DNA of 64,000 bases from NCBI GenBank assembly GCA_943350175.1, contig CALQZX010000002.1, positions 66,061 through 130,060 of the forward strand, in the 5' to 3' direction. Origin of the DNA: Parcubacteria group bacterium. GTDB taxonomy: Bacteria > Patescibacteriota > Microgenomatia > UBA1400 > PJMF01. Below, piece after piece: positions 10,296 to 54,671 of the stretch. The notes beneath the pieces are model-generated. The model was not told the DNA's origin and did not search any database. It worked only from the letters and a program-made list of their open reading frames with translations. The position numbers and the translations under genes were made by a program. Each line of letters begins with the position of its first letter. Position 1 is the first letter of the stretch.

Positions 10296-11732
10296 ATGAA
10301 TAATATTCGTACCAGAATGGCCCCTAGTCCTACCGGAGAAATGCACGTCGGCAGTCTAGCCACACTTCTCAAAAATTATGCCTTTGCCAAGAAAAATGGT
10401 GGGCAATTTATTTTGCGTATCGAAGATACGGATAAAGAAAGAGAAGTTGAAGGTGGAGTGCAAGCAATTCAAGAAATTGTGCGTCGTTATGGCTTAGATT
10501 GGGATGAAGGTCCAGGCAAAGGTGGCGAATATGGTCCATATATTCAATCAGAGCGTTTAGATATCTATAAAAGAGAAGTGCAGACTTTAATCGATAACGA
10601 CAAGGCATATTATTGTTTTTGTTCCAAAGAACGTTTGGCAGAAGTCAAAGAACAGCAAATGGCTAGTAAACAGCCTCCTCATTATGACCGTCATTGTAGA
10701 AATATCTCTGTAGATGAAGCCAAAAAAAGAGTGGCTGCTGGTGAAGATTATGTGATTCGTCTTAAGGTTCCAGCAGATCAGGAAATTACTTTCACCGATT
10801 TACTTAGAGGTGAAATCACTTTTCATTCCAATTTAATTGATGATCAAGTTTTACTAAAATCTGATGGCTATCCAACCTATCATTTGGCAGTAGTCATTGA
10901 TGATTATTTGATGAAAATTACTCACATTATGCGTGGAGAAGAATGGATTAGTTCCACTCCCAAGCACGTTTTGCTTTATCAGGCTTTTGGTTGGCCAGTG
11001 CCAGTATTTGCCCATATTCCAGTCTTTTTGAACCCTGATGGTAAAGGCAAAATGAGCAAGAGAAAAGGCATGGTTTCGGCCGCTTCTTTCTTGGATAGAG
11101 GTTATTTGCCAGAAGCGATGTTGAACTTTTTTATGATTCTTGGGTGGGCTAAAAAAGATCAGGAAGAAGTCATTAGTTTAGAAGAATATATTAACGAATT
11201 TGATCCAAGTGATTTGAGTAGCAATAGTGTCGCTTTTGATATCAAGAAACTTGATTGGCTCAATGGTGTCTATATTCGCAAACTAAGCCCAGAGCAATTA
11301 AAAGAAAAAATAACTCCATTTATTGCCGCTGATTTTCCAGCTGACAAAATAGAGCAAGTTCTGCCTTTGATTCAAGAAAGATTGGTGACTTTGGCAGATT
11401 TTAATTTATTGACCAAATTTTTCTACGGTGAAATTAATTACGAGACCGATTTGCTGTTGAAGAAAGCTGATTCAAAAGAAATAGTAATTCAAGAATTAAA
11501 CGAAACAATTACTTTACTTGAATCTTTGAGTGATTGGTCTTTAACTTCTTTGGAAGAAGCAATTAGAGGACTTCAAGAGAAAAAAGATTGGCACAGAGGT
11601 CAATTTTTTATGATGCTGCGCATTGCTGTCACCGGAGAAAAAGCTACTCCTCCTCTTTTTGAAACGATTATGGTTTTAGGCAAAGATTTGGTGCTGGCAC
11701 GTTTGAAGACAGCGCTTGATAAATTAGCCTAA
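10296..11732 (+). CDS. gltX: glutamyl-tRNA synthetase
   Basis: 478 aa. RMAPSPTGEMHVG (HIGH region), LRIEDTD and KMSKR motifs. GAGGTG Shine-Dalgarno upstream. Confidence 0.9.
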   Translation: MNNIRTRMAPSPTGEMHVGSLATLLKNYAFAKKNGGQFILRIEDTDKEREVEGGVQAIQEIVRRYGLDWDEGPGKGGEYGPYIQSERLDIYKREVQTLIDNDKAYYCFCSKERLAEVKEQQMASKQPPHYDRHCRNISVDEAKKRVAAGEDYVIRLKVPADQEITFTDLLRGEITFHSNLIDDQVLLKSDGYPTYHLAVVIDDYLMKITHIMRGEEWISSTPKHVLLYQAFGWPVPVFAHIPVFLNPDGKGKMSKRKGMVSAASFLDRGYLPEAMLNFFMILGWAKKDQEEVISLEEYINEFDPSDLSSNSVAFDIKKLDWLNGVYIRKLSPEQLKEKITPFIAADFPADKIEQVLPLIQERLVTLADFNLLTKFFYGEINYETDLLLKKADSKEIVIQELNETITLLESLSDWSLTSLEEAIRGLQEKKDWHRGQFFMMLRIAVTGEKATPPLFETIMVLGKDLVLARLKTALDKLA

Positions 11733-11753
11733 AACAAAGTTGATGGTAAAAAT

Positions 11754-12572
11754 ATGACTGCCCAAAGTAAATCACAACAAATCCTAGCTTCATTGGCGAT
11801 GGCCGGACAAGTGGCTATGACCAGTCCTTTGCTTTCTAGCAATCAAAATCACCAGCAGGTTTTGGATGAAAAAACTCGCCAAGTGGCTCTAGATATTTCA
11901 GAGCAAGAACATCAGGAAATTGTCGCTAAACTTAGTTCTTACGTTAATTCTCCAGCAGGGCACTTGGAAAGAGAGACTGAGCTTTATCTGGAACAGCAGC
12001 TTTCAGAGATTCTTGGTTTTAAAGTCAGAGCAGAGTTGGACGGTCAAAAACTCAATCATAGTGTTGGTATTATGGGAGCTGAGCAACACTTGCTTCGTTT
12101 TCCTGGTGATGAGCTAAAAGATCATGATGCCTACACTGAAGCCGGCATAGCTCCAAATAGAGGCGCTTTTGGTTGGTTTACTCAGAATGGAGAGCTGACT
12201 GAAAAATCAATTCTCAGAGAAAAATATTATTTTGCTGTTCAATTGATGTATTTACCGCAGTGGAGTGAAAATCACCCAGAACTTAAACCTTGGTATAAAT
12301 ATCGCAAAATGATTGTCATTAATCCAGCTGAGCAAATGGCCGTAGTCGGGGTGGTAGCTGATGCTGGTCCAAGCATGTGGGTTAAAAAGCAATTTGGCGG
12401 TTCTCCAGAGGTGATTCGCGAAGGTAGAATTTGGAGCCCTAACAGTAAAGGTAAGGTAATGATTTTATTTATTGATGATGAAGAAGATATTGTGCCACTT
12501 GGTCCAATTTCTCTAGATTTTAAAGCTGTCTTAGCTCACAATGAGAGCAATAATTCTCAAGCAAATATATGA
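11754..12572 (+). CDS. hypothetical protein with possible RlpA-like double-psi beta-barrel domain
   Basis: 272 aa. The C-terminal segment VVGVVADAGPSMW...GRIW resembles the V-x-D-x-GP core of DPBB/RlpA-like domains. Weak, memory-based assignment. Confidence 0.4.
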   Translation: MTAQSKSQQILASLAMAGQVAMTSPLLSSNQNHQQVLDEKTRQVALDISEQEHQEIVAKLSSYVNSPAGHLERETELYLEQQLSEILGFKVRAELDGQKLNHSVGIMGAEQHLLRFPGDELKDHDAYTEAGIAPNRGAFGWFTQNGELTEKSILREKYYFAVQLMYLPQWSENHPELKPWYKYRKMIVINPAEQMAVVGVVADAGPSMWVKKQFGGSPEVIREGRIWSPNSKGKVMILFIDDEEDIVPLGPISLDFKAVLAHNESNNSQANI

Positions 12573-12964
12573 TCAAAACAAATCTCTTTATTGGTTCTCG
12601 TTATCCTGTTGATCGTCACAAAATCAAAGCAACTGTAGAGAGAGTTCTGAGTGAGCATGGCACAGACAATGCTCAGGTAGATGTATCGATCGTTGGCATT
12701 AGAAAAATCACCACGCTTAATGAAAAATATCTCAAACATGAAGGCCCAACCGACGTTCTCTCCTTTCCCCAACACAATAAAGGACAACTGCAGGACATTC
12801 CTCTCCCAGAGGGAGAGCTCATACACTTGGGAGACGTGATCATTAGTTTTCCAGAGGCAGTCAAAATGGCCAAAAGATTTGGCAAGATGGTCGATGCACA
12901 GATTTGCTTTTATCTAGAACACGCTCTACTTCATTTACTTGGTTATCATCACGACGATCATTAG
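12569..12964 (+). CDS. ybeY: rRNA maturation endoribonuclease YbeY
   Basis: 131 aa. C-terminal zinc motif HALLHLLGYHHDDH (H-x3-H-x5-H). Confidence 0.75.
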   Translation: MIKTNLFIGSRYPVDRHKIKATVERVLSEHGTDNAQVDVSIVGIRKITTLNEKYLKHEGPTDVLSFPQHNKGQLQDIPLPEGELIHLGDVIISFPEAVKMAKRFGKMVDAQICFYLEHALLHLLGYHHDDH

Positions 12965-43513: not shown

Positions 43514-44641
43514 ATGAAATCAGCCATTTATGCCTTTTCTGGCGACCCAATTACTTTTGGTCATTTGGATATTATTAAGCGCGCTGCAGCCGTTTTTGAC
43601 CGTTTAGTGGTGGCGATTGGCGTTAATCCAAGTAAGAAGTATCTTTTTTCTCTGGAAGAGCGTACTGAAATGGCCCGTCGCTCCTTGCTCAATCTCACTA
43701 ATGTCGAAGTTAAGTCATTTTCTGGCATGCTAGTGGATTTTGCTTACGAAAATAATATCAATGTAATTGTTAAAGGTGTGCGTAGTAGCAATGACTTTGA
43801 ATATGAAATGAGCTTACATAATTTGGGTGAAAGTCAGAAACTTGGTATTGATACCTTTATTCTCTTTGCCAAACCAAGCCTGGCTCACATCAGCTCAAGT
43901 GCTGTCAAAGACATTCAGAAGGAACAAGGCTTGATTCAAGATTATGTCCCACCTTACGTCAAACAATGTGTGGAAGCCAAATTGAGTGGCCAATACATCA
44001 TTGGTCTAACTGGTGAAATTGGTGCTGGTAAATCCTATGTTGGAGAAAAGCTGGTAGAGCTGGCCAAAGCAATGAATTTGGAAGCTCATAACATCGAACT
44101 GGATCATTTATCTTGGCAAATCCAGGACGATCTCAAAGAAGAAAAATACGAAGTAGTGCGTAAGCAAATTATTGATACTTTTGGCGCTGAAGTCGGCAAT
44201 GCTGACGGCAGTATTAATCGCAAAGCGCTTGGTGAAATTGTTTTTGCTGATCAAAAAAAGTTAGAGCGTCTCAATGAAATTATGGATACGCCAATTCTAG
44301 TGCGCTTGCGTCGTGAGCTCAAAGATAAAAAAGGTCTAATTTTCCTCAATGCCTCTTTGCTCGCTGAAGCTGGTATGGGTCAGCTTAGTAACTGCAATAT
44401 GATTCTTTTGTCTGTGGATGAAGCGACTCAAGAACAAAGATTGCTCGATAGAGATTTGGATAAAGAGCAGATTAAAAGAAGACTGATGAGTCAATACGAT
44501 TTTGTACACAAGAAAGAACAACTGGAAAAAGAAATTGAAATGAACAGACAGGGAAAATTGTGGGTGATGGAGAGTGAGGATTACGGAATAGTCAATTTAT
44601 TGGAATCTATTATTAGCTATTTTCAATTAAAAAATAAATGA
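43514..44641 (+). CDS. bifunctional phosphopantetheine adenylyltransferase / dephospho-CoA kinase (CoaD-CoaE fusion)
   Basis: 375 aa. N-terminal PPAT motifs (FSGDPITFGHLDII, KGVRSSNDFEYE, ISSSAVKDI). C-terminal DPCK P-loop IGLTGEIGAGKS. Confidence 0.8.
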   Translation: MKSAIYAFSGDPITFGHLDIIKRAAAVFDRLVVAIGVNPSKKYLFSLEERTEMARRSLLNLTNVEVKSFSGMLVDFAYENNINVIVKGVRSSNDFEYEMSLHNLGESQKLGIDTFILFAKPSLAHISSSAVKDIQKEQGLIQDYVPPYVKQCVEAKLSGQYIIGLTGEIGAGKSYVGEKLVELAKAMNLEAHNIELDHLSWQIQDDLKEEKYEVVRKQIIDTFGAEVGNADGSINRKALGEIVFADQKKLERLNEIMDTPILVRLRRELKDKKGLIFLNASLLAEAGMGQLSNCNMILLSVDEATQEQRLLDRDLDKEQIKRRLMSQYDFVHKKEQLEKEIEMNRQGKLWVMESEDYGIVNLLESIISYFQLKNK

Positions 44642-46173
44642 CAGTTTCTACTTTTGAGCAAAACACTAAAAATGAGCAAATGTATTCAGTAGATGAATTA
44701 GTAGCTAAAAAATCTGTTGATTTATTACCACCAAATCTTAATCAAAAAATTAGTATTCAAGTCATATCTTTTAAAGAAATGTCAGAGCAGACTCCCATAA
44801 GTAATGAGATAGGACATTTAATTCTATTTTTAGAATCAGTGATTTCAGCTACAAATAATTTAGACAAAAGTGCCTTAAAAGAAATTGAGATTTTGTTCAA
44901 TGTTAATAATCAAAAAGGAGACGTTCCTATTGGGAACCGTCGTGCTTTGTTGCTTCTATCTAGTTTAACAAAGTTTAAAGACTTGCCAGTGGAAAAGATT
45001 ATAGAGGTTATGGTGAAAGATGGTATGTTAGTTGGTCAAGATATTGAACCAAATTATGATCTAGGTATTAAAGAACTAAAGAAGCAGCTCGCTATTCATG
45101 GAATAACTGATGATTACGAGGTATCAGAAATAATTTCTGATCGAATGGCAGAATGGAAAAATGCATTTAATCAAAGTCTAATTGCAAAAGATAGAACAAC
45201 TAAGTTGATTATCAACTTGCGTCAAAAAATTGAAGATGGACTCTCAATTGGATTAATAGATTGTACAGATGGCTCATACATTTCAAAGTATAAAGAAGGT
45301 GATAATAAAACTTATCCAAATACACAGGCAGCTCGCAGGCTTTTGCTATCAGAAATAGCCAAAAACAGATCAGATCAAATTGGAGGCAATTCATTAATGA
45401 TTCCAATGGATAATGATTGCTTGCTAACCGAATCAGGCTTAAGAACTTGGTTGGAATCTACTTATAAAAAAGAAGCATTTCTTTCTGTTCCAGATTTTGT
45501 TCCAGATGAAAGTTGTCTGGATATTAATGAAAATTCGATTGCAGAAGCTAAAATTTTTCAGCAGTTTTCTGATTTTAAAATGATTAAAGGTTTCATAAAA
45601 TCATTTTTAAATAACCAAAGAATAAGTTTTGCTCCATTTCTTGGATCATGTGGATTTTCTACGAGTACTTATAAGTTGATTAAGGGCTGGGATTTGATGG
45701 ATGAATCGTTGGGAGAAGATGCGAGAATGATGACTAAAGTTATTAAAAAAGCAGATCACCTTTCTTTTTACCCTAGAGCATTAATCAAAGTTTCATCCAG
45801 AATTAGAGAGGGGTCATGGATGGGTAACCAGGACAAATGGAAGGAGAGGTCTAGAGATTCGTATCTAATTAAAGTACCTAAGGATAATCTTTTTTGGAAA
45901 AGATTTGATTTATCCAATTCTTTGATTGATTTCGACCAATTAGTTGATTTGCTTACAAATTTGATTAAAAAAAGATTCAGTCAAGACGATATGAAAAATA
46001 TTCATGGGGAAAGAATTTTGAGTTATTTAGAATCTGATAATAAACAACTAAGTTTGATTAGAGCACTAAACGCTCTACTTTCTAGCGGACTATCTAAAAA
46101 TGAAATTTTTGTCAGAAATGAAGACTCTAAGCAGTTGCAAGACTTATTTGTGGCAGTTTCACAATTGCTTTGA
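44638..46173 (+). CDS. hypothetical protein
   Basis: 511 aa, 4-nt overlap with coaDE, no recognisable motif. Confidence 0.5.
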   Translation: MTVSTFEQNTKNEQMYSVDELVAKKSVDLLPPNLNQKISIQVISFKEMSEQTPISNEIGHLILFLESVISATNNLDKSALKEIEILFNVNNQKGDVPIGNRRALLLLSSLTKFKDLPVEKIIEVMVKDGMLVGQDIEPNYDLGIKELKKQLAIHGITDDYEVSEIISDRMAEWKNAFNQSLIAKDRTTKLIINLRQKIEDGLSIGLIDCTDGSYISKYKEGDNKTYPNTQAARRLLLSEIAKNRSDQIGGNSLMIPMDNDCLLTESGLRTWLESTYKKEAFLSVPDFVPDESCLDINENSIAEAKIFQQFSDFKMIKGFIKSFLNNQRISFAPFLGSCGFSTSTYKLIKGWDLMDESLGEDARMMTKVIKKADHLSFYPRALIKVSSRIREGSWMGNQDKWKERSRDSYLIKVPKDNLFWKRFDLSNSLIDFDQLVDLLTNLIKKRFSQDDMKNIHGERILSYLESDNKQLSLIRALNALLSSGLSKNEIFVRNEDSKQLQDLFVAVSQLL

Positions 46174-47563: not shown

Positions 47564-48439
47564 TTGTCGCCCAACATAAATATGAATGAATTTGATTACT
47601 TAGTTTTGCTTACTTTGGCTTACAGCAGTTGTTTTTCCTTTGCTTTGACGGCTGATGAGGTGATTAAACGTTTACCATTGGCACCAAAAAAACTCATTTT
47701 TTCTGAGAAAAAAATCAGAGAATCGCTAAAGAAATTGACTAAGCAAGCTTTAATTCAAAGTGATGGACAATATTTTTTCTTGGAAAAGAAAGATTTGATA
47801 AGTAGAAAAAAACGTGCCAAATTTGTTTCCGCCAAAAAAGAGCGAACAACTGAATTTGTAAAATTGGCTAGCAAAATTCCATTTGTCCAAGCCATTGTCT
47901 TAACTGGCTCCACAGCCGTTGATAATGCCCAAAAAGAGGACGATTTAGACTTCATGATTATTTGTAAGAAGAACACCTTGTGGATCTGCCGTTTCCTCTT
48001 AATCGCCCTCACCAAACTGAAAGACAAAAGACCAAGTCAAGAAAAAGATAACGCCTGGTGTCTCAACCTTTGGTTAGACGAAAGCGACCTAACAATCGAC
48101 GAAAATAGAAGAAGCCTCTACGAAGCCTACGAAATACTACAAATGAAATTCGTCTTTGACCGAAGTAATTATGAAAAAAGATTTTTAAATGCCAATGCTT
48201 GGCTTCGCAATTATTTGTTTATTTACGAATTATATGGCTTTGGCAAATACAAAAAAGAAAAGAGTTACTCTTGGTTCAATCAACTTTTTTTTAGCTTGCA
48301 AAAAAGATATCGTCTTTTGAGTTTTGGCCAAGAGAATTTTAGCTTGAGTCTGACTCAAGCCTTTTTTAACCATTTGAATTTTCGAGCAAAATTATTTACT
48401 AGATTAAGAAAAAAATTGAGTGATTTTGATATGTTATAA
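47564..48439 (+). CDS. wHTH plus Pol-beta-type nucleotidyltransferase domain protein
   Basis: 291 aa. The GS-x9-13-DxD-like segment LTGSTAVDNAQKEDDLDFMI. Start possibly at the ATG at 47582. Confidence 0.45.
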   Translation: MSPNINMNEFDYLVLLTLAYSSCFSFALTADEVIKRLPLAPKKLIFSEKKIRESLKKLTKQALIQSDGQYFFLEKKDLISRKKRAKFVSAKKERTTEFVKLASKIPFVQAIVLTGSTAVDNAQKEDDLDFMIICKKNTLWICRFLLIALTKLKDKRPSQEKDNAWCLNLWLDESDLTIDENRRSLYEAYEILQMKFVFDRSNYEKRFLNANAWLRNYLFIYELYGFGKYKKEKSYSWFNQLFFSLQKRYRLLSFGQENFSLSLTQAFFNHLNFRAKLFTRLRKKLSDFDML

Positions 48440-48481
48440 ATTCATTTTTTATTCATTTTAGAGTGGTTTAATGAAAACATT

Positions 48482-48592
48482 ATGAACAAAATAATCGAAA
48501 AAATTCTCCAAAATCAGAATATCTCCGAACAAGAAATCAAGACAATAATTACTGATCAAACCTACGGGCAACCGTGGAGTGATGAGGAATAA
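48482..48592 (+). CDS. candidate 36-aa peptide (MNKIIEKILQNQNISEQEIKTIITDQTYGQPWSDEE) translationally coupled to the sensor kinase
   Basis: ORF below the 60-aa track cut-off. Its TAA stop overlaps the kinase ATG (TAATG). Weak Shine-Dalgarno. Confidence 0.3.
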   Translation: MNKIIEKILQNQNISEQEIKTIITDQTYGQPWSDEE

Positions 48593-49980
48593 TGAATTTT
48601 AAAAATATATTATTAACTTTTGAAGAAAATTGGTCAGAAGATAAAATAAGAAAAAGCTATCTTTTGAATTTAATTAACGCTGGTTTATTTATTTTTCTTG
48701 TTTCTATCATTGCAATTCGAATCTTAGGAGAAATGTTTTTCAATGCATCTTCAAACAAAGAAAGTTTTGTGGTTTTGTTCTCTATTCTTTTACTTTTGAG
48801 TTTTATGATCTTTTTAGTGAAAAAGGGATTTGTTCGAATTGTAGCTTTCTCAATTTTGATTTTGTTGTTAGCCTCTTCTTTAAAAGGCAGTTTTACGTGG
48901 GGATTAGATCTTTATACAGTTGATATGATGTATCCGCTGATTATCTTGTTGAGTGCTATTTTAATTAGCTCAAAATTTTCTTTTTTCATGCTCTTTATTA
49001 TTTGCTTTAATTTATCTCTGATATTTATTTTGCAAGAAAATGGATATTCATTTGCAAGTTCCGCATGGAAGCTATCCACACCGAGTTTCCTGAATTTATT
49101 AACCATTTTGCTTATTTATACTTTGATGACCTTTCTATCCTGGTTGTCATCCAGGGAAATTGAAAAATCTTTAAATAAATCAAGGATTTTGGCTAGCAAA
49201 CTCAAAATGCAGAATGAAAACCTTGAGCAAATAGTTGAAGAAAGAACAAAAGAATTAAAAGTATTGCAGTTAAATCAGCTGACCAGAATTGCTCCGCTTT
49301 TAGATCTTGGAAAGTTATCTGCCGGTCTAATTCATGACGTCAGAGAACCTTTAGCAGTTTTAAGTTTTATTATGCAAAATGCAAGTCAAAATAAAAACAT
49401 AGTAAAAGATTTGGATGAGGCTTTTTTGGCAATTAATAAAATAGATGAACTTTCAAAAATGAGCGCTTGTCAGCTGTTCAGTGAACCCGAATTAGAAATT
49501 TTTAATTTAAATCAAGAAATAAAAAAAATTATTAGTTTATTTGAATATAAAACTAGACTCAGAAAAGTAAGGATTATTTTTGAAACAAATAAAGAATATG
49601 ACTTGCATGCTGACCGATCAAAGTTGAATCAAGTAATAGCCAATTTGATTTTAAATTCATTAGAAGCTTATGAATTTTCTGAAAGTAAAGAAAAATATAT
49701 TTTTATAAAATTAATTAAAAAGCCGAGGAACTTGTTAATTAAAATTAAAGACTATGGAATTGGAATTAATCAAGAAAATTTAATTCACATTTTTGAACCA
49801 AACTTTTCATCCAAAGATAATAAAGAATTTTTGGGGTTTGGCCTCTATGTTAGTCAAGAAGCAATGAAGAAAGTTTTTGAAAGTAGAATTGGATTTGAAA
49901 GTGAAGCTGAAGCTGGTTCTGAATTTACGCTTTTTATAAAAAATAAATTTATTCTCAATGAATTCGCTAAAAGCCATTAA
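48592..49980 (+). CDS. sensor histidine kinase (polytopic N-terminal sensor domain)
   Basis: 462 aa. ~7 TM helices, H-box region (LIHDVREPL), HATPase N box (LILNSLEA), G1 (IKDYGIGI) and G2 (GFGLYV) boxes. Confidence 0.7.
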   Translation: MNFKNILLTFEENWSEDKIRKSYLLNLINAGLFIFLVSIIAIRILGEMFFNASSNKESFVVLFSILLLLSFMIFLVKKGFVRIVAFSILILLLASSLKGSFTWGLDLYTVDMMYPLIILLSAILISSKFSFFMLFIICFNLSLIFILQENGYSFASSAWKLSTPSFLNLLTILLIYTLMTFLSWLSSREIEKSLNKSRILASKLKMQNENLEQIVEERTKELKVLQLNQLTRIAPLLDLGKLSAGLIHDVREPLAVLSFIMQNASQNKNIVKDLDEAFLAINKIDELSKMSACQLFSEPELEIFNLNQEIKKIISLFEYKTRLRKVRIIFETNKEYDLHADRSKLNQVIANLILNSLEAYEFSESKEKYIFIKLIKKPRNLLIKIKDYGIGINQENLIHIFEPNFSSKDNKEFLGFGLYVSQEAMKKVFESRIGFESEAEAGSEFTLFIKNKFILNEFAKSH

Positions 49981-51769
49981 TTATTTAGAAAATCATTATC
50001 TTGATGATAATCAAGCACTTTTTCCAATTATCTTAATTTTAAATTCTCTAAATAGTTGCCAATTGAAGGGGGCTAATAAAATAAAGAAAGAAATTTTCTC
50101 GTTCCTTATTAAGGAAAAATCATCGAATAACTCATTTAATTATTGGTGCAAAGATTCGGCTAGTTATTTAAAAGAGCCATATCCAAATGATCTGGATGAC
50201 ACTTTTTGTGCTTGGGAGGCTTTGTTTCATTTTGATAAAGAAATTATCAATGAACTCGTTCTATTAGATTTGAGCAAGATTTTGCTTCTCAATCAAAAGA
50301 AAAATTCTGGACCATATTTTACTTGGATTGTGAATAAGAATGATTTTCCAAAATGGAAGAATATTGACCTGTTGGTTAATATAAACATAGCTAGATTTTT
50401 AACATCTCAGAAGATTTTAGTTAAGGGTTTGGACGAGTTTATAGATGAAAAGATATTATCTGAAGACTTGTCATCAGTTTATTACAAAGGAGAATTGGCG
50501 AGTTTATATTTTTTAAGCTATTTTTATAAAGGACAACTTAAAAATAAAATTAAAGAAAAATTAATTTTGTATCTAAATCAAAAGACCTCAGATAGTTCAA
50601 TGATTCTTTTATTTATCGCAACTATTCGTTTTGGTTTTGAAGATTTACTAATCAGTGAGCACTTAAAAATAATTTCATCGTTACAAGAAAAAGATGGTTC
50701 GGTTAATTCTTTTGATTTTTATAATTATAGAAATCAAAAAACTGGTGAGAAATGTTATGGCAGCAAATCGCTGAGCACTGCTTTTTTCTTGGAATTATTA
50801 ATGCTTCTAGAAAAAATGAAACTTAATAAAAAAGAGTCAAAATTAAAAAGTGATTTAATGAGTGTGTTTAAGCAAAAAACTTCGATTCTGAAAGATGAAA
50901 AGATAGAGGAAATACTTGTTAAAAAGGCTAATTCTATTATTAATGGCAAGGAAAGCGATTTAGCCATATTCTTACCAAGGCAGCTGATTATTTCTTTAAA
51001 AAAGAAGGTTAGAATTGGTGACGAAATTATTCTCAGATTATCATTAATTAATCTTTTTGCTTGGCTAGCTTACACAATTTATGATCACATCAATGATCAA
51101 GAAGGAGATTTTGACAAATTACCGATTGCCAATTTAGTTTTTCAGTTGCTTATTAAAGAAGTTTTATTACTACCTAATGGCGCATTCTATCTTTACAAGA
51201 TTATTAATCTTTTCACGATGATGGAAAAGAATTTTTTAGAAGAATTAAATTTTTATCGATTTGATAATCAACCTTGGATGAAAATCTCTGAAATTAATGA
51301 ATCAAAAATTAAAATTTTTTTATATAACAAATCAATTGGTCAGATTTTTTCAGTTTATTTTTTATTGGATTATCTTGAGTTGAAAGACAAGAAAATTATC
51401 TTGGCGATTTTACGTAATCTGATTTTGATAAAACAGATGAATGATGATGCTCACGATTGCTTCAAAGACCTGAGTGCTGGGCAAATCAATAGTGTTAATT
51501 ATATTTTACTCAAACACATTTCCTCTGAGGAAAATAGAAATCAGTTCTTATGTAAAAAAATAGAGGAATTAAAAATTATTTATTATAAAGAAATTATTCC
51601 AGTTTTTTCAAAAAAAATATTCTTATACATTAAAAAAACTAAAAGCTTATTAATTCGACAGACTTTATTAAAAGAAGATGACTTTTTTATGAAAGTTTTA
51701 TCTAAGTATGAAAATATAACTAAGGAAGGTCTAAGGGAAAGAACAAATCTTATCAATTATCTAAACTGA
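49958..51769 (+). CDS. hypothetical alpha/alpha-toroid repeat protein with class-II-terpene-cyclase-like DxDDT motif
   Basis: 603 aa, 23-nt overlap with the kinase gene. Motif YPNDLDDTFCAWEAL, several Q-x3-5-G/S-x-(W/F/Y) repeat-like segments (QKKNSGPYFTW, LQEKDGSVNSFDFY), and a DDxxD (NDDAHD) in the C-terminal half. Confidence 0.5.
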   Translation: MNSLKAINYLENHYLDDNQALFPIILILNSLNSCQLKGANKIKKEIFSFLIKEKSSNNSFNYWCKDSASYLKEPYPNDLDDTFCAWEALFHFDKEIINELVLLDLSKILLLNQKKNSGPYFTWIVNKNDFPKWKNIDLLVNINIARFLTSQKILVKGLDEFIDEKILSEDLSSVYYKGELASLYFLSYFYKGQLKNKIKEKLILYLNQKTSDSSMILLFIATIRFGFEDLLISEHLKIISSLQEKDGSVNSFDFYNYRNQKTGEKCYGSKSLSTAFFLELLMLLEKMKLNKKESKLKSDLMSVFKQKTSILKDEKIEEILVKKANSIINGKESDLAIFLPRQLIISLKKKVRIGDEIILRLSLINLFAWLAYTIYDHINDQEGDFDKLPIANLVFQLLIKEVLLLPNGAFYLYKIINLFTMMEKNFLEELNFYRFDNQPWMKISEINESKIKIFLYNKSIGQIFSVYFLLDYLELKDKKIILAILRNLILIKQMNDDAHDCFKDLSAGQINSVNYILLKHISSEENRNQFLCKKIEELKIIYYKEIIPVFSKKIFLYIKKTKSLLIRQTLLKEDDFFMKVLSKYENITKEGLRERTNLINYLN

Positions 51770-51783
51770 TCTCCCAAAAGCTC

Positions 51784-52416
51784 ATGCGACTGTTAATTTT
51801 TAGTCAAGATAATCAACTATTAAGATTCTTTACTGCAAACTTCCCTAAAAAAGCAATTTCAGACATAGTTTTTTCTAAAGAAGATTTTTTTACCAATTTC
51901 TACTTATATGATTATGATTTAATTTTGTTAGATCTGTTATTTGTGGGAAATAATTATTGCGATTTAATTAAAGAGGTTAGAGAAGAGAATAAAAGAATTT
52001 CAATTATTTGTTTATTTGGAAAAGACAAATTTCCAAATTTGGCTGAAACTTTATCTTTACAAATAAATTATTTATTATTTAAGCCAGATTTGTTTAGTCA
52101 AAATTTGCAAACAAATTCTCTTAATTTATTAAAATTTGATCAAGAAGCAGATCTTTTCTTTACAAGAAATAGAATGCTTAAATTAAGCAAACAAGAACAT
52201 CTCTTATTAAAATTTTTATTTTTAAATCAGCATAAATTTAATTCAAAATTAGAGATAGCCAGAAAGATATTGAAAGAGTCTTATCTCATTGGCTCTAATC
52301 TAGTTGATGTTTACATTTACAGGCTGAGAAAAATTTTAGGAAGCGAATCATCAGGAGTAAAAATAATAAACCGAAAAAATTTTGGTTATAAAATTACTGC
52401 TTGTACAGATTCATAA
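51784..52416 (+). CDS. OmpR-family response-regulator-like protein (atypical receiver + winged-helix DNA-binding domain)
   Basis: 210 aa. Phospho-acceptor-like Asp in DLILLDL, K-P in KPDLF, acidic pocket DN instead of DD. C-terminal winged helix (…VDVYIYRLRKIL). Confidence 0.6.
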   Translation: MRLLIFSQDNQLLRFFTANFPKKAISDIVFSKEDFFTNFYLYDYDLILLDLLFVGNNYCDLIKEVREENKRISIICLFGKDKFPNLAETLSLQINYLLFKPDLFSQNLQTNSLNLLKFDQEADLFFTRNRMLKLSKQEHLLLKFLFLNQHKFNSKLEIARKILKESYLIGSNLVDVYIYRLRKILGSESSGVKIINRKNFGYKITACTDS

Positions 52417-52578
52417 ATTTTGTTATTTTATTTCTTGCTGTGGAATATAGTGAAAATCTATAACTGTGCCGCAACGGTGATTCCTTAGGGATTAGTCCGA
52501 TCTTCAGCAAAAGAGATATTCTTGACGAGCATCGAGTTAGAGTTATTTTGTAGACTTTAATTTTCTACCACAATCGAT

Positions 52579-52600
52579 GCTCCCTGAGGGGAGCTTTTTT
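52579..52600 (+). terminator. intrinsic terminator; its 5' stem arm can alternatively pair with 52527-52534
   Basis: GCTCCC-TGAG-GGGAGC followed by T6. The upstream octamer GAGCATCG (52527-52534) is exactly complementary to CGATGCTC (52575-52582), which overlaps the terminator stem. Confidence 0.55.
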
Positions 52601-52676
52601 GTCTAAAGACCAAGGTAAAGCAATTTATTTATTTTGCTCCAAGGGTTTTCCTTGCGGAGCTAGTGAAAGGTCTGAA

Positions 52677-53390
52677 ATGTCAAAAGAAGAAGGCAGGAAA
52701 GCTTTAGAAATGGCTGGAAGCATTGGAGTTGGTGCGAGCGAAATGGGGGCAAACTGGGCCTCACTCAACACACTTAACTTTTCCTCAATCTTAGAAAATT
52801 TAGGTCAAGAAATCGGGATGAGCAGTTTTGAATGGCAAAAAATTTTATCTCAGGCTGGTTTGTGGATGATAGATGGCTTAGATGCAAGAATTACTAATTT
52901 GCAAAACAAGGCTGTCGAACAGAGCACAGCAATTGAATTAAGACAGATGTTTGGCGTGCCAATTTCTTTACTAGCAATGCCTGTTTTCGTTGAATTGGAA
53001 GGCATGGAATTAGCTGCAAAGATTGATCTGAAACAAGAAGCATTGGCAACTTCTCAACTATGGGAGCAAATTAATAATAGGTTGCTTTATGCTATTCAGT
53101 TGTTTTTGGCAGAACAAATTAATTTGGTAGAAGAAGATAAGCTTGCGCATGAAGCAGCCTTGACTGAGTCAAAAAAGGAAGCAGATGATGTCCCTGCCTT
53201 GGCAGAAACAATTCAAAGAATAGGAGAAAAATTCAAATTAAAGCTGGCAGAGTTGGAAAAAAATAAAGATTCTTTATTAAATGCTTTTTCAAAAGTAAGC
53301 AAAAATACCATTGCTTCCGTTGAAAGAGTTTTCGAGACGACGGTTTTTAGTGCGCGAGGACAGAGTTTGACTACGGTTTCTATAAAATAA
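52677..53390 (+). CDS. hypothetical protein
   Basis: Start placed at the ATG at 52677 (GAAAGG 7 nt upstream). The tracked TTG start at 52599 lies inside the terminator T-tract. ~237 aa, helical, no motif recognised. Confidence 0.45.
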   Translation: MSKEEGRKALEMAGSIGVGASEMGANWASLNTLNFSSILENLGQEIGMSSFEWQKILSQAGLWMIDGLDARITNLQNKAVEQSTAIELRQMFGVPISLLAMPVFVELEGMELAAKIDLKQEALATSQLWEQINNRLLYAIQLFLAEQINLVEEDKLAHEAALTESKKEADDVPALAETIQRIGEKFKLKLAELEKNKDSLLNAFSKVSKNTIASVERVFETTVFSARGQSLTTVSIK

Positions 53391-53438
53391 AAAGCTGGAG
53401 ATATTATTGAGAGATAGAGAATATGCTTTTTTATTGTG

Positions 53439-53509
53439 ATCCCGGGTCAGGATTCGAACCTGAAATAACTGATTCAGAGTCAGTGATGATGCCATTTCAC
53501 TACCCGGGA
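53439..53509 (-). tRNA. tRNA-Gln (anticodon CUG)
   Basis: Hand-folded from TCCCGGGTAGTGAAATGGCATCATCACTGACTCTGAATCAGTTATTTCAGGTTCGAATCCTGACCCGGGAT. U1-A72 pair as in bacterial tRNA-Gln, perfect anticodon stem ACTGA/TCAGT with loop CTCTGAA, perfect T-arm TCAGG-TTCGAAT-CCTGA. Confidence 0.75.
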
Positions 53510-53557
53510 GTGTGATTTTAAGATTATTTTACCTTCTAATTATATAACAAAATAATT

Positions 53558-54229
53558 ATGAAGAGGATCTTAATTCTTGAGAGCGATTGGCTTGTTTTAT
53601 CTACTCTAAATGATTATCTAAAAAAGAAGGGCTGTCTAGTAAATTGTGCTCAAACAATTGAGAGAGCCAAAGTCTTACTTCTTAAACATAAATTCGACCT
53701 ATTTATTTGCGAACGCATCTTGGAAGAGGGTGACGTTTTAGATTTTTTAGATTCTATTAAAGAGAAAAAACTATTCATGAGGGTCTTGGTTGTCAGTCAA
53801 AAAAAATCATTATTAGATAGAATTGATACTTTAAAATTAGCCAACGATTTTCTAGCCAAACCATTTAATTCAACTGAACTTTATTTGAAAATTGACAATC
53901 TGCTGAATTTAGAAAGAATTGGCGGCGATGAATTCATAGAAAATTCACTTTTTTTGCTTAAAGATTCAGCTGGCTTAGAAAATAAAAATCATTTTCGTCC
54001 TCAAGAATTAAAAATTCTTGAATGTCTCCTCAAGCATAAGAATATGGTAATTTCTTATGAGACGATCTCCTCATATGTTTGGGGTTATAGAGATTCGTTC
54101 CCTCTTAAAAAAACCATTAGTGTCTATATTAGAAGAATAAGGACTAAGCTATTCTTACAAAATTTGAAGATCATGACTGTCAAAAATAGAGGTTATAAGC
54201 TTATTGATTTAAAGGAAAAAAGCATTTAA
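53558..54229 (+). CDS. OmpR-family response regulator
   Basis: 223 aa. Receiver domain (MKRILILESD…, DLFICE) and C-terminal winged helix (…ISVYIRRIRTKL). Confidence 0.65.
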   Translation: MKRILILESDWLVLSTLNDYLKKKGCLVNCAQTIERAKVLLLKHKFDLFICERILEEGDVLDFLDSIKEKKLFMRVLVVSQKKSLLDRIDTLKLANDFLAKPFNSTELYLKIDNLLNLERIGGDEFIENSLFLLKDSAGLENKNHFRPQELKILECLLKHKNMVISYETISSYVWGYRDSFPLKKTISVYIRRIRTKLFLQNLKIMTVKNRGYKLIDLKEKSI

Positions 54230-54671
54230 CGGTAGTGCCTCTATTTTTTTTGGAAAATATTTTTAGATATCCGCCAAATTCTTTTTTTATTTCTTTATTA
54301 ATTTTTTGAAGATCTGATTCTTTGGACCCATCTCCTAGAATTAATATACTTTGTTGGAGCAGCTTCTTGGAAAGAAAAGATATGCCGCTTCCACCATCAG
54401 TTATGCTCAACGACAGCTCTTTTTCACTTTCTAATTTGCTGGTTAATAAAATAATTTTATTTGGTATTTTTTTTGGATATGCTTTTTTAGCTTGTTTAAT
54501 TAAACTAAAAATTAGTCCTTGGAAAATAGCTTCGTTCCCAATAATCTCAAGTTCTTTTGGAACGTCTATTTTGCAACTATAAATAAAACCTTTTTTAATT
54601 AAAGAACTGAGAGTTATGACTTCTCTAATTTTTTGATTAACAGGAATTTTTCTCGCTTCAATTCGCTTCAT
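54201..54671 (-). CDS. stand-alone histidine-kinase-type ATPase domain (HATPase_c only; possible kinase remnant)
   Basis: 156 aa. N box (GNEAIFQGLIFSLIKQA), G1 (ITDGGSGIS), G2-like (GDGSKE…GGYL). No HisKA/H-box, no TM region. Convergent with and overlapping the regulator gene by 29 nt. Confidence 0.4.
   Translation of the reverse strand: MKRIEARKIPVNQKIREVITLSSLIKKGFIYSCKIDVPKELEIIGNEAIFQGLIFSLIKQAKKAYPKKIPNKIILLTSKLESEKELSLSITDGGSGISFLSKKLLQQSILILGDGSKESDLQKINKEIKKEFGGYLKIFSKKNRGTTVKCFFPLNQ

Follow-up and report, generated by a model that had tools for sequence, protein, structure and literature searches.

A candidate peptide pheromone module with a predicted terpene cyclase-prenyltransferase fusion enzyme in Patescibacteria

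In the ComQXPA system of Bacillus, a short precursor is modified at an internal Trp close to its C-terminus by an enzyme with the isoprenoid-synthase fold, and a polytopic histidine kinase and a response regulator are encoded next to it, with no dedicated exporter or protease. The modifying enzyme, ComQ, is a stand-alone protein of ~300 aa without a cyclase domain and with only a pseudo-SARM (second Asp-rich motif), ComP and ComA form a HisKA_3/NarL-type pair, and comQXP alleles are strongly polymorphic. [quoted passage not shown] As described in a review (PMC13290415, citing Hubrich et al. 2024, Chem 10:3224), ChrPC combines two domains in a single polypeptide: its trans-IDS-like prenyltransferase domain acts on an internal Trp in a ribosomal peptide, and its MstE-like class II terpene cyclase, of the monodomain kind, cyclizes the prenyl group. 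The same review (PMC13290415) gives a conserved Gln just before the SARM, for recognition of the indole N-H, as a signature of Trp prenyltransferases. Among other class II cyclases, drimenol/drimenyl-diphosphate synthase (9mhs), AstC and MstE (6sbb) act on free prenyl diphosphates or meroterpenoids and occur either as stand-alone enzymes or in fusion with a HAD phosphatase.

To our knowledge, next to nothing has been described of how cells of the candidate phyla radiation (CPR)/Patescibacteria sense each other or their hosts. The one genomic survey of quorum sensing in CPR that we found predicted small-molecule signals only, with ComQ, ComX, prenyl and terpene unmentioned (PMC7567580), and in the literature searched we found no description of a peptide signalling system of the type considered here. 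The locus that we analysed lies in a 64-kb stretch of DNA (hereafter the window, meaning that whole stretch), and its features are collected in Table 1. The ORFs, the tRNA-Gln(CUG) and the hairpin named in a preliminary description of this region are all present at the positions given there. That description had read 48482-54671 as one unit opening with a five-gene operon; we find instead that 48482-52416 is a self-contained core module of four co-directional, coupled genes. The 237-aa gene further downstream has a cobalamin riboswitch and terminator of its own, and this gene, the tRNA-Gln, the second regulator (RR2) and the 156-aa protein are kept in syntenic relatives that are without the peptide, the enzyme and the first regulator (RR1). 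The suggestion that peptide, kinase, cyclase-like enzyme and regulator belong together as a pheromone- or RiPP-type set proved well founded, as they constitute a real and deeply conserved module. We consider it likely, with some reservation, that this module encodes a ComQXPA-like peptide pheromone circuit with a ChrPC-type enzyme and a two-component system, in which the signal carries a prenylated and probably cyclized Trp.

Table 1. Positions and supporting evidence for the features of the locus (window coordinates)
Feature	Coordinates	Strand	Evidence or remark
Upstream direct repeat	48440..48459	+	9-bp ATTCATTTT-N2-ATTCATTTT, 11-bp period
36-aa precursor peptide MNKIIEKILQNQNISEQEIKTIITDQTYGQPWSDEE	48482..48592	+	Family HMM E 6e-11
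Polytopic sensor histidine kinase, 462 aa	48592..49980	+	HATPase_c 1e-15
603-aa enzyme, whole ORF	49958-51769	+	ORF confirmed
603-aa enzyme, predicted class II terpene cyclase N-domain	49958..50857	+	~residues 1-300
603-aa enzyme, predicted trans-IDS-like prenyltransferase C-domain	50909..51769	+	~residues 318-603
RR1, OmpR-family regulator	51784..52416	+	Trans_reg_C 1e-12; receiver 6e-4
AdoCbl-II riboswitch aptamer	52424..52514	+	Rfam RF01689, 46 bits
Intrinsic terminator	52579..52604	+	GCTCCC-TGAG-GGGAGC then TTTTTTGTCT; hairpin plus T-tract at 52579-52594
237-aa protein	52677..53390	+	No match in Pfam, NCBIfam or PHROG
tRNA-Gln (CUG)	53438..53509	-	Conserved neighbour outside module
RR2, OmpR-family regulator	53558..54229	+	Trans_reg_C 2.5e-15
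156-aa protein, convergent	54201..54671	-	HATPase_c E 1.2e-3, below Pfam cut-off

Chance does not account for the 36-aa ORF, because at least 73 distinct peptides occupy the same genomic position. Members of this family are 34-45 aa long and share a conserved leader that constitutes a family of its own; Pfam and NCBIfam contain no curated precursor-peptide model for it. Across 80 sources, a search of 27,504 six-frame segments with a peptide HMM gave a single match at each locus and no others. The peptide sits directly 5' of a gene for a 5-6-TM histidine kinase in 71 of the 73 assessable genome loci, and in the window its stop codon overlaps the kinase start (TAATG), with GAGGA just 5'. Trp32 (codon at 48575-48577) corresponds to a residue that is invariant across the 73 distinct peptides, where it stands 1-6 residues before the C-terminus and, unlike the Trp of PalX, is never C-terminal.

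Structure prediction for the 603-aa protein (AF2 pLDDT 91.6) gave a two-domain fusion. The preliminary description had called it an alpha-toroid, cyclase-like protein and had held that, short motifs aside, the non-signalling components belong to no described family; the first label stands for the N-terminal half, whilst the C-terminal half is trans-IDS-like, and the second statement has to be given up for an enzyme in which a class II terpene cyclase and a trans-IDS-like prenyltransferase appear to be joined. The N-domain is modelled as a single alpha/alpha-toroid of the beta type, the architecture seen in monodomain class II terpene cyclases. Its DxDD motif (D78-L-D80-D81-T, 50189-50203) is invariant at all three Asp positions in 52 family sequences, 37 of which read PDDLDDTF, and aligns with DDLDTT of drimenol synthase. 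Against the PDB, the family profile found its closest sequence relative in the cyclase domain of drimenol/drimenyl-diphosphate synthase (9mhs, E 6.8e-14) and also matched AstC (E 3.4e-5). The 603-aa protein alone matched no Pfam model, and weak SQHop_cyclase_C matches were obtained for 22 of the 52 members. A LanC-like lanthipeptide cyclase was considered as well and rejected, with a weak LANC_like match in just one of 52 members and Cys in only four of the 73 peptides.

The C-domain is predicted to adopt the all-helical isoprenoid-synthase (trans-IDS) fold. Its first Asp-rich motif (D376..D380, 51083-51097; both residues invariant) reads YDHIND in the window protein against a family consensus of YDDFLD, and is of the DxxxD rather than the DDxxD form. 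The second motif, D496-D497-x-x-D500...D504, is preceded by Gln493, the two together spanning 51434-51469; this Gln, typical of the Trp prenyltransferases ComQ, PalQ and ChrPC, is invariant and is followed by x-N-D496-D497-x-H-D500. The domain matched no Pfam or NCBIfam model, and its profile returned only chance matches (p14 and Mdm4) when run against all PDB sequences, Ord1 included; because sequence similarity to solved prenyltransferases is lacking, the prediction of a trans-IDS-like prenyltransferase rests on fold and motifs. A true chain-elongating IDS is disfavoured, as no conserved basic residues occur before the first Asp motif. The predicted cyclase and prenyltransferase are found in one polypeptide in the window, and among the best 150 of 3,285 profile matches almost all are proteins of 573-700 aa with a single full-length match. 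Fold and motifs together lead us to predict protonation-initiated cyclization by the N-domain and prenyl transfer to Trp by the C-domain. To judge from the description of ChrPC, fold and motif composition are the same in the two enzymes. The cyclase of the 603-aa family is N-terminal. Compared with ChrPC as described, the family is set apart by 34-45-aa precursors whose leaders form a distinct family, by a sensor kinase and an OmpR regulator as near-constant neighbours of the enzyme, and by its restriction to Patescibacteria as far as sampled. It differs from ComQ and PalQ in possessing a cyclase domain, and from 9mhs, AstC and MstE in that its cyclase is prenyltransferase-fused and peptide-linked.

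In the circuit that we infer, the 603-aa enzyme would bind the 36-aa precursor via the conserved N-terminal leader. The C-domain, its Asp-rich motifs coordinating Mg2+, would ionize a C10-C20 prenyl diphosphate and would alkylate the indole of Trp32, the N-H of which would be positioned by Gln493 and Asp496. The DxDD acid, Asp80, of the class II N-domain would then start cyclization by protonating the prenyl chain, now attached, at its terminal alkene; in an alternative order, free FPP or GGPP would be cyclized first and the cyclic terpenyl group transferred afterwards. The leader would be cut off by a protease, and a short lipophilic C-terminal fragment (...PW*SDEE) would exit the cell. The 48482-52416 locus encodes functions for neither export nor cleavage of the leader, which counts against this circuit; ComQXPA likewise has no dedicated exporter or protease. 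The 6-TM kinase would sense the fragment within the membrane and, through the OmpR-type regulator, feed back on the operon via the 11-bp-periodic direct repeats.

The 603-aa protein might alternatively be a bifunctional terpene synthase that acts on free isoprenoids, its product, a small-molecule signal or a membrane lipid, being sensed by the kinase. The IDS domain would then make GGPP or FPP for the class II domain to cyclize, as in the fungal PvCPS, or free tryptophan or indole would be prenylated, as by Ord1, and the small ORF would encode no substrate but an MgrB-like mini-protein associated with the kinase, or else a peptide that is secreted or anchored. The mid-region is indeed hydrophobic in many Parcubacteria-type peptides and could be a signal peptide or membrane anchor instead; window-type and Saccharibacteria-type peptides, however, are hydrophilic and cannot be TM proteins. 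Moreover, the Trp is invariant in 73 peptides against a variable remainder of the core, and the leader shows the conservation seen in RiPP precursors; the positions at which canonical IDSs bind IPP hold no conserved basic residues in the enzyme family, and the Gln-SARM signature is one found specifically in Trp prenyltransferases. As such, we regard an enzyme of free isoprenoids as improbable.

Consistent with the pheromone circuit, the kinase is a polytopic protein with six predicted TM helices (residues 24-185) joined by very short loops, an H-box His248 (49333-49335) and a C-terminal HATPase_c domain; kinases of the family mostly have 5-6 TM helices. A homologous kinase gene lies directly 5' of the enzyme gene in 74 of the 76 assessable genome loci, the gene set co-occurs across Patescibacteria, and the family is arranged either as RR-pep-HK-enzyme or as pep-HK-enzyme-RR. 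The window kinase is closest to AtoS, ZraS and PhoR-type models. With this AtoS/HisKA-like kinase and OmpR-type (Trans_reg_C) regulators, as opposed to the ComP/ComA pair, the module is analogous to ComQXPA and not a member of it; the peptide families are unrelated and the gene order is different.

Both regulators have a winged-helix Trans_reg_C domain and neither has a canonical receiver pocket, whereas module regulators at distant loci have canonical receivers. The degenerate acid pocket reported earlier for the operon regulator is real: in RR1, S7/Q8 take the place of the acidic pair (PhoB E9/D10) and Phe that of Thr (PhoB T83), with the acceptor Asp50 and the Lys kept, and the acceptor position is Asn in L004 and L010. 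The RR2 receiver reads E, S, E (acceptor), S, K; the replacement of the acceptor Asp by Glu52 is conserved across the sub-clade (L002-L004, L010, L090, L091). With RR1 lacking the Mg2+-binding acidic pair and RR2 having a Glu acceptor, classical phosphotransfer is therefore doubtful in the sub-clade, and the output branch of the window's sub-clade may be phosphorylation-independent or decaying.

Between the stop codon of the upstream gene and the peptide start lies a perfect repeat that we propose as a candidate OmpR-type regulator site. The ATTCATTTT repeat is the sole zero-mismatch match in the 64-kb window, relaxed matches occur at chance level, and a direct-repeat search for further regulon sites within the window gave nothing above chance. 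The 9-bp direct repeat is conserved in L002, L003 and L010, and at distant loci 11-bp-periodic repeats stand ahead of a -10-like box. Repeats of this periodicity were counted 97 times 5' of peptide genes, against 24.5 +/- 6.2 in shuffled sequences under what is a weak mononucleotide null. TTGATGT and TGGGATA, also considered as promoter elements, were rejected, because they belong to the conserved 3' part of the coding region of the regulator gene upstream.

The module recurs in hundreds of CPR bacteria, with a count of at least 327 genomes at species level and ~1,500 protein clusters; the enzyme family alone comprises 1,483 clusters at 50% identity (E<=1e-30). Within the clade of the window, divergence of the module far outpaces that of its flanks, and the module can be lost. 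Compared with L003, identities are 89-98% for the flanks, 74% for the peptide, 65-68% for the kinase, 58% for the enzyme and 50% for RR1, and the peptide, enzyme and RR1 have been lost from the syntenic relatives L090 and L091. Such hyper-divergence and presence/absence variation agree with the accessory status proposed in the preliminary description, which was also correct in noting no integrase or transposase; none was found in the locus or its syntenic relatives, and a mobile-element explanation was rejected. Strong allelic polymorphism is a further likeness to ComQXPA, although in the CPR module the catalytic half of the kinase and the regulator are divergent too.

These losses, a GC content that drops to 0.26-0.30 over 48-52 kb (~0.37 elsewhere), the degenerate receivers of both regulators and the deviant first Asp-rich motif (DHIND) would all fit a decaying relic without current signalling function in this genome. 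Against this, the four ORFs are intact and translationally coupled, and the remaining catalytic residues and the kinase H-box are all retained. Furthermore, DHIND and the S/Q receiver recur in L002 and L003, and S/Q also in L005; the recurrence of DHIND, S/Q and Glu52 in the sub-clade points to selection rather than random decay, and we deem a relic very improbable. Fast diversification would also fit an arms race, in which the same prenylated/cyclized-Trp RiPP functions chiefly as a membrane-active weapon or a factor in host interaction, directed for instance at competitors or at the surface of the episymbiont's host, the kinase and regulator serving autoinduction or self-protection only. Prenylated peptides are membrane-active according to the review cited above (PMC13290415), and Patescibacteria have been described as largely episymbiotic. 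Nevertheless, such a primary role appears unlikely to us, given that in none of ~90 loci is the module accompanied by conserved genes for immunity, ABC transporters or proteases, that its invariant partner, like that of ComQXPA and PalPXQ, is a sensor kinase, and that the mature peptides are predicted to be very short, extending roughly 3-8 residues past the leader.

Building on the pheromone circuit, we tentatively propose that Patescibacteria may own a widespread, ancient and dedicated peptide quorum-sensing system, in which a single fusion enzyme would make a short peptide pheromone with a prenylated, terpene-cyclized Trp, a cognate intramembrane-sensing kinase would read it, and alleles would diversify into pherotypes. 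If true, no earlier peptide pheromone system would be known in the ultra-small, largely episymbiotic CPR bacteria, and a ribosomal peptide modified with a cyclic terpene would have its first signalling role there. The module offers a concrete and testable candidate for cell-cell signalling and, as a compact cassette of three genes (peptide, kinase and enzyme), could be reconstituted heterologously despite the organisms being uncultured. It also represents a rich natural collection of prenyltransferase/cyclase fusions, with substrates that are short and simple, which might be used in peptide lipidation biocatalysis, and a possible handle on the strain-level social structure (pherotypes) of episymbiont populations.

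The riboswitch and the 237-aa gene are a unit separate from the pheromone module. The AdoCbl-II aptamer, which the preliminary description had missed, is a full-length RF01689 match (gathering score 36.5), and in L002, L003, L004, L010, L090 and L091 each homolog of the 237-aa gene is preceded by a cobalamin riboswitch above the gathering score. A terminator follows 65 nt 3' of the aptamer, between it and the start codon of the gene, which we predict to be under cobalamin control. The strong terminator of the preliminary description thus exists as a hairpin with T-tract, but is better read as, probably, the expression platform of the riboswitch; it may also end the operon and stop read-through. 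The longest ORF, of 263 aa, begins at a TTG (52599) that overlaps the terminator; the version from the ATG at 52677 is favoured because homologs measure 233-244 aa. An elongated all-helical bundle is predicted for the protein (AF2 pLDDT 76), with no significant match in a fold search. It has 42 homologs at >=47% identity and is hypervariable, with 30-56% identity in near relatives whose flanks reach 90-98%. Full aptamer, intrinsic terminator and regulated ORF follow in the order of AdoCbl/AdoCbl-II riboswitches (RF01482/RF01689), the difference being that the regulated helical protein has no recognizable link to cobalamin transport or metabolism. The organisms that carry the gene cannot make the cobalamin cofactor themselves, and the riboswitch marks this uncharacterized protein as the product of a candidate new B12-related gene.

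Finally, RR2 is retained in relatives without the module, and the 156-aa protein, kept in L090 and L091, travels with RR2 and not with the module. Of its earlier description as the ATPase domain of a kinase, a weak HATPase_c similarity remains, at a value short of the Pfam cut-off; the protein is without an H-box domain, and its 214-aa counterpart in L005 has a HATPase_c match.

An ORF check recovered from the window every ORF of the preliminary description, although the operon that it had counted as five genes comprises four, closely packed and encoding a precursor peptide, a sensor histidine kinase, a 603-aa enzyme and the OmpR-type regulator RR1 (see the table). The peptide stop and kinase ATG overlap (TAATG) with GAGGA immediately 5', the kinase and enzyme genes share 23 nt, and RR1 follows the enzyme gene after a gap of 14 nt; across 48-52 kb of the window the GC content drops to 0.26-0.30. 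We consider it probable that this module works as a pheromone circuit resembling ComQXPA, with a ChrPC-like bifunctional maturase at its core; for this model we observe the genomics, the folds and the motifs and infer all the chemistry and signalling.

Features of the module and its surroundings (window coordinates)
Feature	Position	Strand	Evidence
511-aa ORF	44638-46173	+	
Nucleotidyltransferase-like protein, 285-291 aa	47564-48439	+	weak Polbeta/NTP_transf_2 similarity
Terminator-like hairpin	48342-48360		
Perfect direct repeat	48440-48459		
36-aa ORF (precursor peptide)	48482-48592	+	ORF call
Histidine kinase, 462 aa	48592-49980	+	HATPase_c 1e-15
603-aa protein	49958-51769	+	ORF call
OmpR-type regulator RR1, 210 aa	51784-52416	+	Trans_reg_C 1e-12; receiver only 6e-4
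AdoCbl-II riboswitch aptamer, full-length	52424-52514	+	Rfam, 46 bits vs 36.5
GC-rich hairpin + T-tract	52579-52594		
237-aa ORF (ATG 52677)	52677-53390		
tRNA-Gln(CUG)	53438-53509	-	
OmpR regulator RR2	53558-54229	+	
156-aa ORF, convergent	54201-54671	-	weak kinase-ATPase similarity, E 1.2e-3

When one genome per GTDB species was scanned, 327 genomes contained a relative; the best 80 of them belong to Saccharibacteria, Microgenomates-group, Parcubacteria-group, Doudnabacteria, CPR2 and similar lineages. Regulator, peptide, kinase and enzyme follow one another in this order on one strand in 55 of these 80 best loci and the regulator is elsewhere in the flank in six, the remainder being mostly cut off by contig ends. 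Of 76 assessable loci, 74 have the kinase (real exceptions L071 and L078; encoded as two ORFs in L028 and L061), and 71 of 73 have the peptide (real exceptions L078 and L058, the latter with an extra 238-aa ORF between the kinase and enzyme genes). All loci inspected at 81, 57, 49, 40, 32, 30, 29 and 25 % enzyme identity had the kinase followed by the enzyme with an OmpR regulator nearby, in otherwise unrelated flanks. Among the loci examined, no transporter, protease or immunity gene co-travels with the module; that the product of the modelled circuit serves instead as a weapon or host effector seems to us rather unlikely. Several public metagenome-assembled genomes with this CPR-specific module (L010, L012, L019, L022, L023, L030 and others) carry the titles 'uncultured Gammaproteobacteria', 'Pseudomonadales', 'Bdellovibrionales', 'Vitreimonas' or 'Sulfotelmatobacter', and these record titles are probably wrong, as gene content and closest relatives point to Patescibacteria.

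The small ORFs upstream of the kinase in the relatives, including uncalled ones recovered in L006 and L008, are homologous, giving 73 distinct peptides from 76 sources (the window and 75 related loci), typically of 34-45 aa. They share a leader, M-K-x-L-I-K-K-I-L-T-D-K-x-A-R-N, followed by a middle part that varies and an invariant Trp, which is always trailed by one to six residues, never zero, and preceded by Pro in 59 of the 73; Cys occurs in only four. Peptides of the window's sub-clade have a divergent leader (ILQNQNISEQE) with unchanged spacing and the tail YGQPWSDEE. Run against 80 sources, a peptide-family HMM picked out exactly one segment at each locus (window E-value 6e-11) and no other below E ~5 among 27,504 six-frame segments, a scan that is circular for the training sequences and still demonstrates positional specificity. 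Many copies are preceded by a strong Shine-Dalgarno sequence, GAAAGGAGGTG, and the peptides are not covered by any Pfam or NCBIfam model.

The 603-aa window protein likewise had no match in Pfam or NCBIfam. Full-length relatives of 586-667 aa numbered at least 132 in a database search, almost all of them unnamed and derived from metagenome bins of CPR/Patescibacteria, and an exhaustive profile search matched 3,285 cluster representatives (1,483 at E ≤ 1e-30), the best 150 of which are nearly all of 573-700 aa with a single full-length match. Three acidic motifs are invariant in an alignment of 52 members with identity down to 23 %: P-D-D-L-D-D-T-F (D78, D80, D81), A-Y-T-I-Y-D-D-F-L-D (D376, D380) and R-Q-L-N-D-D-A-H-D-W-E-x-D (Q493, D496, D497, D500, D504). 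The family profile matches bacterial drimenol synthase in its class II cyclase domain (9mhs; E 6.8e-14) and also fungal AstC, the enzyme's DDLDDT aligning with the DDLDTT motif of both; another deposited chain of drimenol synthase, presumably an active-site mutant, has Asn opposite D80. For the C-half, which is predicted to be trans-IDS-like, canonical IDSs provide a point of comparison, as they carry an IPP-binding Lys/Arg cluster N-terminal to the first Asp-rich motif. No conserved basic residue precedes that motif in the 52-member alignment, where the only invariant basic positions of the C-half are K/R458 and K/R492, and this lack of conservation where IDSs bind IPP favours a transferase over a chain-elongating synthase.

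A 2026 review (PMC13290415) groups ComQ, PalQ and the P domain of ChrPC as trans-IDS-like peptide prenyltransferases, with Trp as the target in all characterised cases and a conserved Gln directly upstream of the second Asp-rich motif; this Gln and the first Asp of that motif are proposed to recognize the indole N-H. The invariant Q493-x-x-D496 of the enzyme fits this signature. As the review summarizes Hubrich et al. (2024), ChrPC unites two domains in one fusion: P adds a prenyl group (C10-C20) to an internal Trp, and the MstE-like C domain afterwards cyclises that group (PMC13290415); it is from this described domain make-up and these motifs that we call the module enzyme ChrPC-like. A free-terpenoid synthase accompanied by a peptide that acts as a kinase accessory is the other way to read such an enzyme, and we judge it decidedly unlikely.

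The window kinase has six predicted transmembrane helices with minimal loops (residues 24-185), an H-box His248 and a C-terminal ATPase domain, and most family kinases have five or six such helices, which is the architecture of intramembrane-sensing pheromone receptors. Under the pheromone model, the leader-bound precursor would be prenylated on Trp32 by the enzyme's C-domain and the prenyl chain cyclised by the N-domain, or in the reverse order; the modified peptide would then be processed and released, the product would be sensed by the six-helix kinase, and an OmpR regulator would feed back on the operon. The likeness to ComQXPA is one of circuit only, and the module falls outside that family because its kinase and regulator classes differ. 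Tryptophan prenylation with terpene cyclisation by a fusion enzyme is already known, as is a prenyl-peptide and kinase circuit; their union appears to be undescribed in the searchable literature, as do the family of precursors and a distribution that is broad within Patescibacteria and almost limited to them.

Receivers of the regulators in distant loci are canonical. In RR1 of the sub-clade, the acidic pair is replaced by S/Q and the Thr by Phe, with Asn as the acceptor in L004 and L010, and the RR2 acceptor is Glu in the window, L002-L004, L010, L090 and L091, L005 being the sub-clade exception; hence, output in this lineage may not depend on phosphorylation. RR2, with its Glu acceptor, overlaps convergently with the weakly kinase-like 156-aa ORF, and both are kept where the module is lost, which points to an OmpR regulator that acts without phosphorylation beside a remnant partner.

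Between the window and L003, the genes flanking the module (xth, a 198-aa membrane protein, PMT_2 and MptA) are 89-98 % identical, whereas identity within the module is 74 % for the peptide, 65-68 % for the kinase, 58 % for the enzyme and 50 % for RR1. The syntenic relatives L090 and L091 are without peptide, enzyme and RR1, the kinase remaining only in diverged or truncated form. Thus, the module is accessory, evolves fast and can be lost, a combination that recalls polymorphic pheromone loci; that it is a decaying relic in the window's own genome strikes us as very improbable. The single locus proposed previously for 48482-54671 does not hold together, as the riboswitch and 237-aa gene, RR2 and the 156-aa protein persist without the module. 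Next to the tRNA lies a variable point of insertion: the closest relative, L002, has a 387-aa Fic/Fic_N protein (11438-12601, minus strand) between the 242-aa gene and tRNA-Gln, with no counterpart in the window. Upstream of the locus, too, gene content varies: one spot holds the 511-aa ORF in the window and L003 (no match in Pfam, NCBIfam or PHROG) and an inositol-phosphatase-family gene in L002.

The hairpin and T-tract earlier read as the operon terminator do exist and, with the aptamer, make up the interval 52424-52604 on the plus strand; given the order aptamer, terminator, 237-aa ORF and the conserved pairing in module-less genomes, they are most simply a riboswitch expression platform. 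A cobalamin riboswitch precedes the 237-aa ortholog in six relatives (L002, L003, L004, L010 and the module-less L090 and L091), and L005 has neither riboswitch nor gene. The 237-aa protein, which has only 42 close homologs, is predicted to be a long helical bundle (pLDDT 76), with no family assignment or significant fold match; its gene, from a CPR bacterium, is a candidate for a new B12-related gene. Between the window and L002, L003, L004 and L010 it is only 30-56 % identical within 90-98 % identical flanks, and its similarity ranking (L004 > L010 > L002 > L003) departs from flank order, pointing to shuffled alleles or strong diversifying selection.

Peptide genes with their own promoter region have 11-bp-periodic direct repeats immediately before a -10-like box, such as CTTTAC (three copies in L007, L031 and L063; two in L069). 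The window carries a perfect repeat, ATTCATTTT-N2-ATTCATTTT, unique in the window and kept in L002, L003 and L010. Such repeats are compatible with OmpR-type autoregulation, for which they are only suggestive. Separately, a conserved GGUCGA(R) motif occurs in 24 of 77 loci (including L007, L008, L013, L020, L024, L031, L046, L051, L062, L063, L069, L075, L083 and L087), or 31 % vs 7 % of background 130-nt windows, mostly 33-49 nt 5' of the peptide ATG and usually in the loop of a hairpin whose stems vary between loci yet still pair. It is absent from the window's clade and may be an RNA element in the 5'-UTR of the transcript for peptide, kinase and enzyme. Across the sub-clade, module-less relatives included, the position 5' of the peptide gene is occupied by the nucleotidyltransferase-like protein, the 3' end of whose gene contains the terminator-like hairpin.
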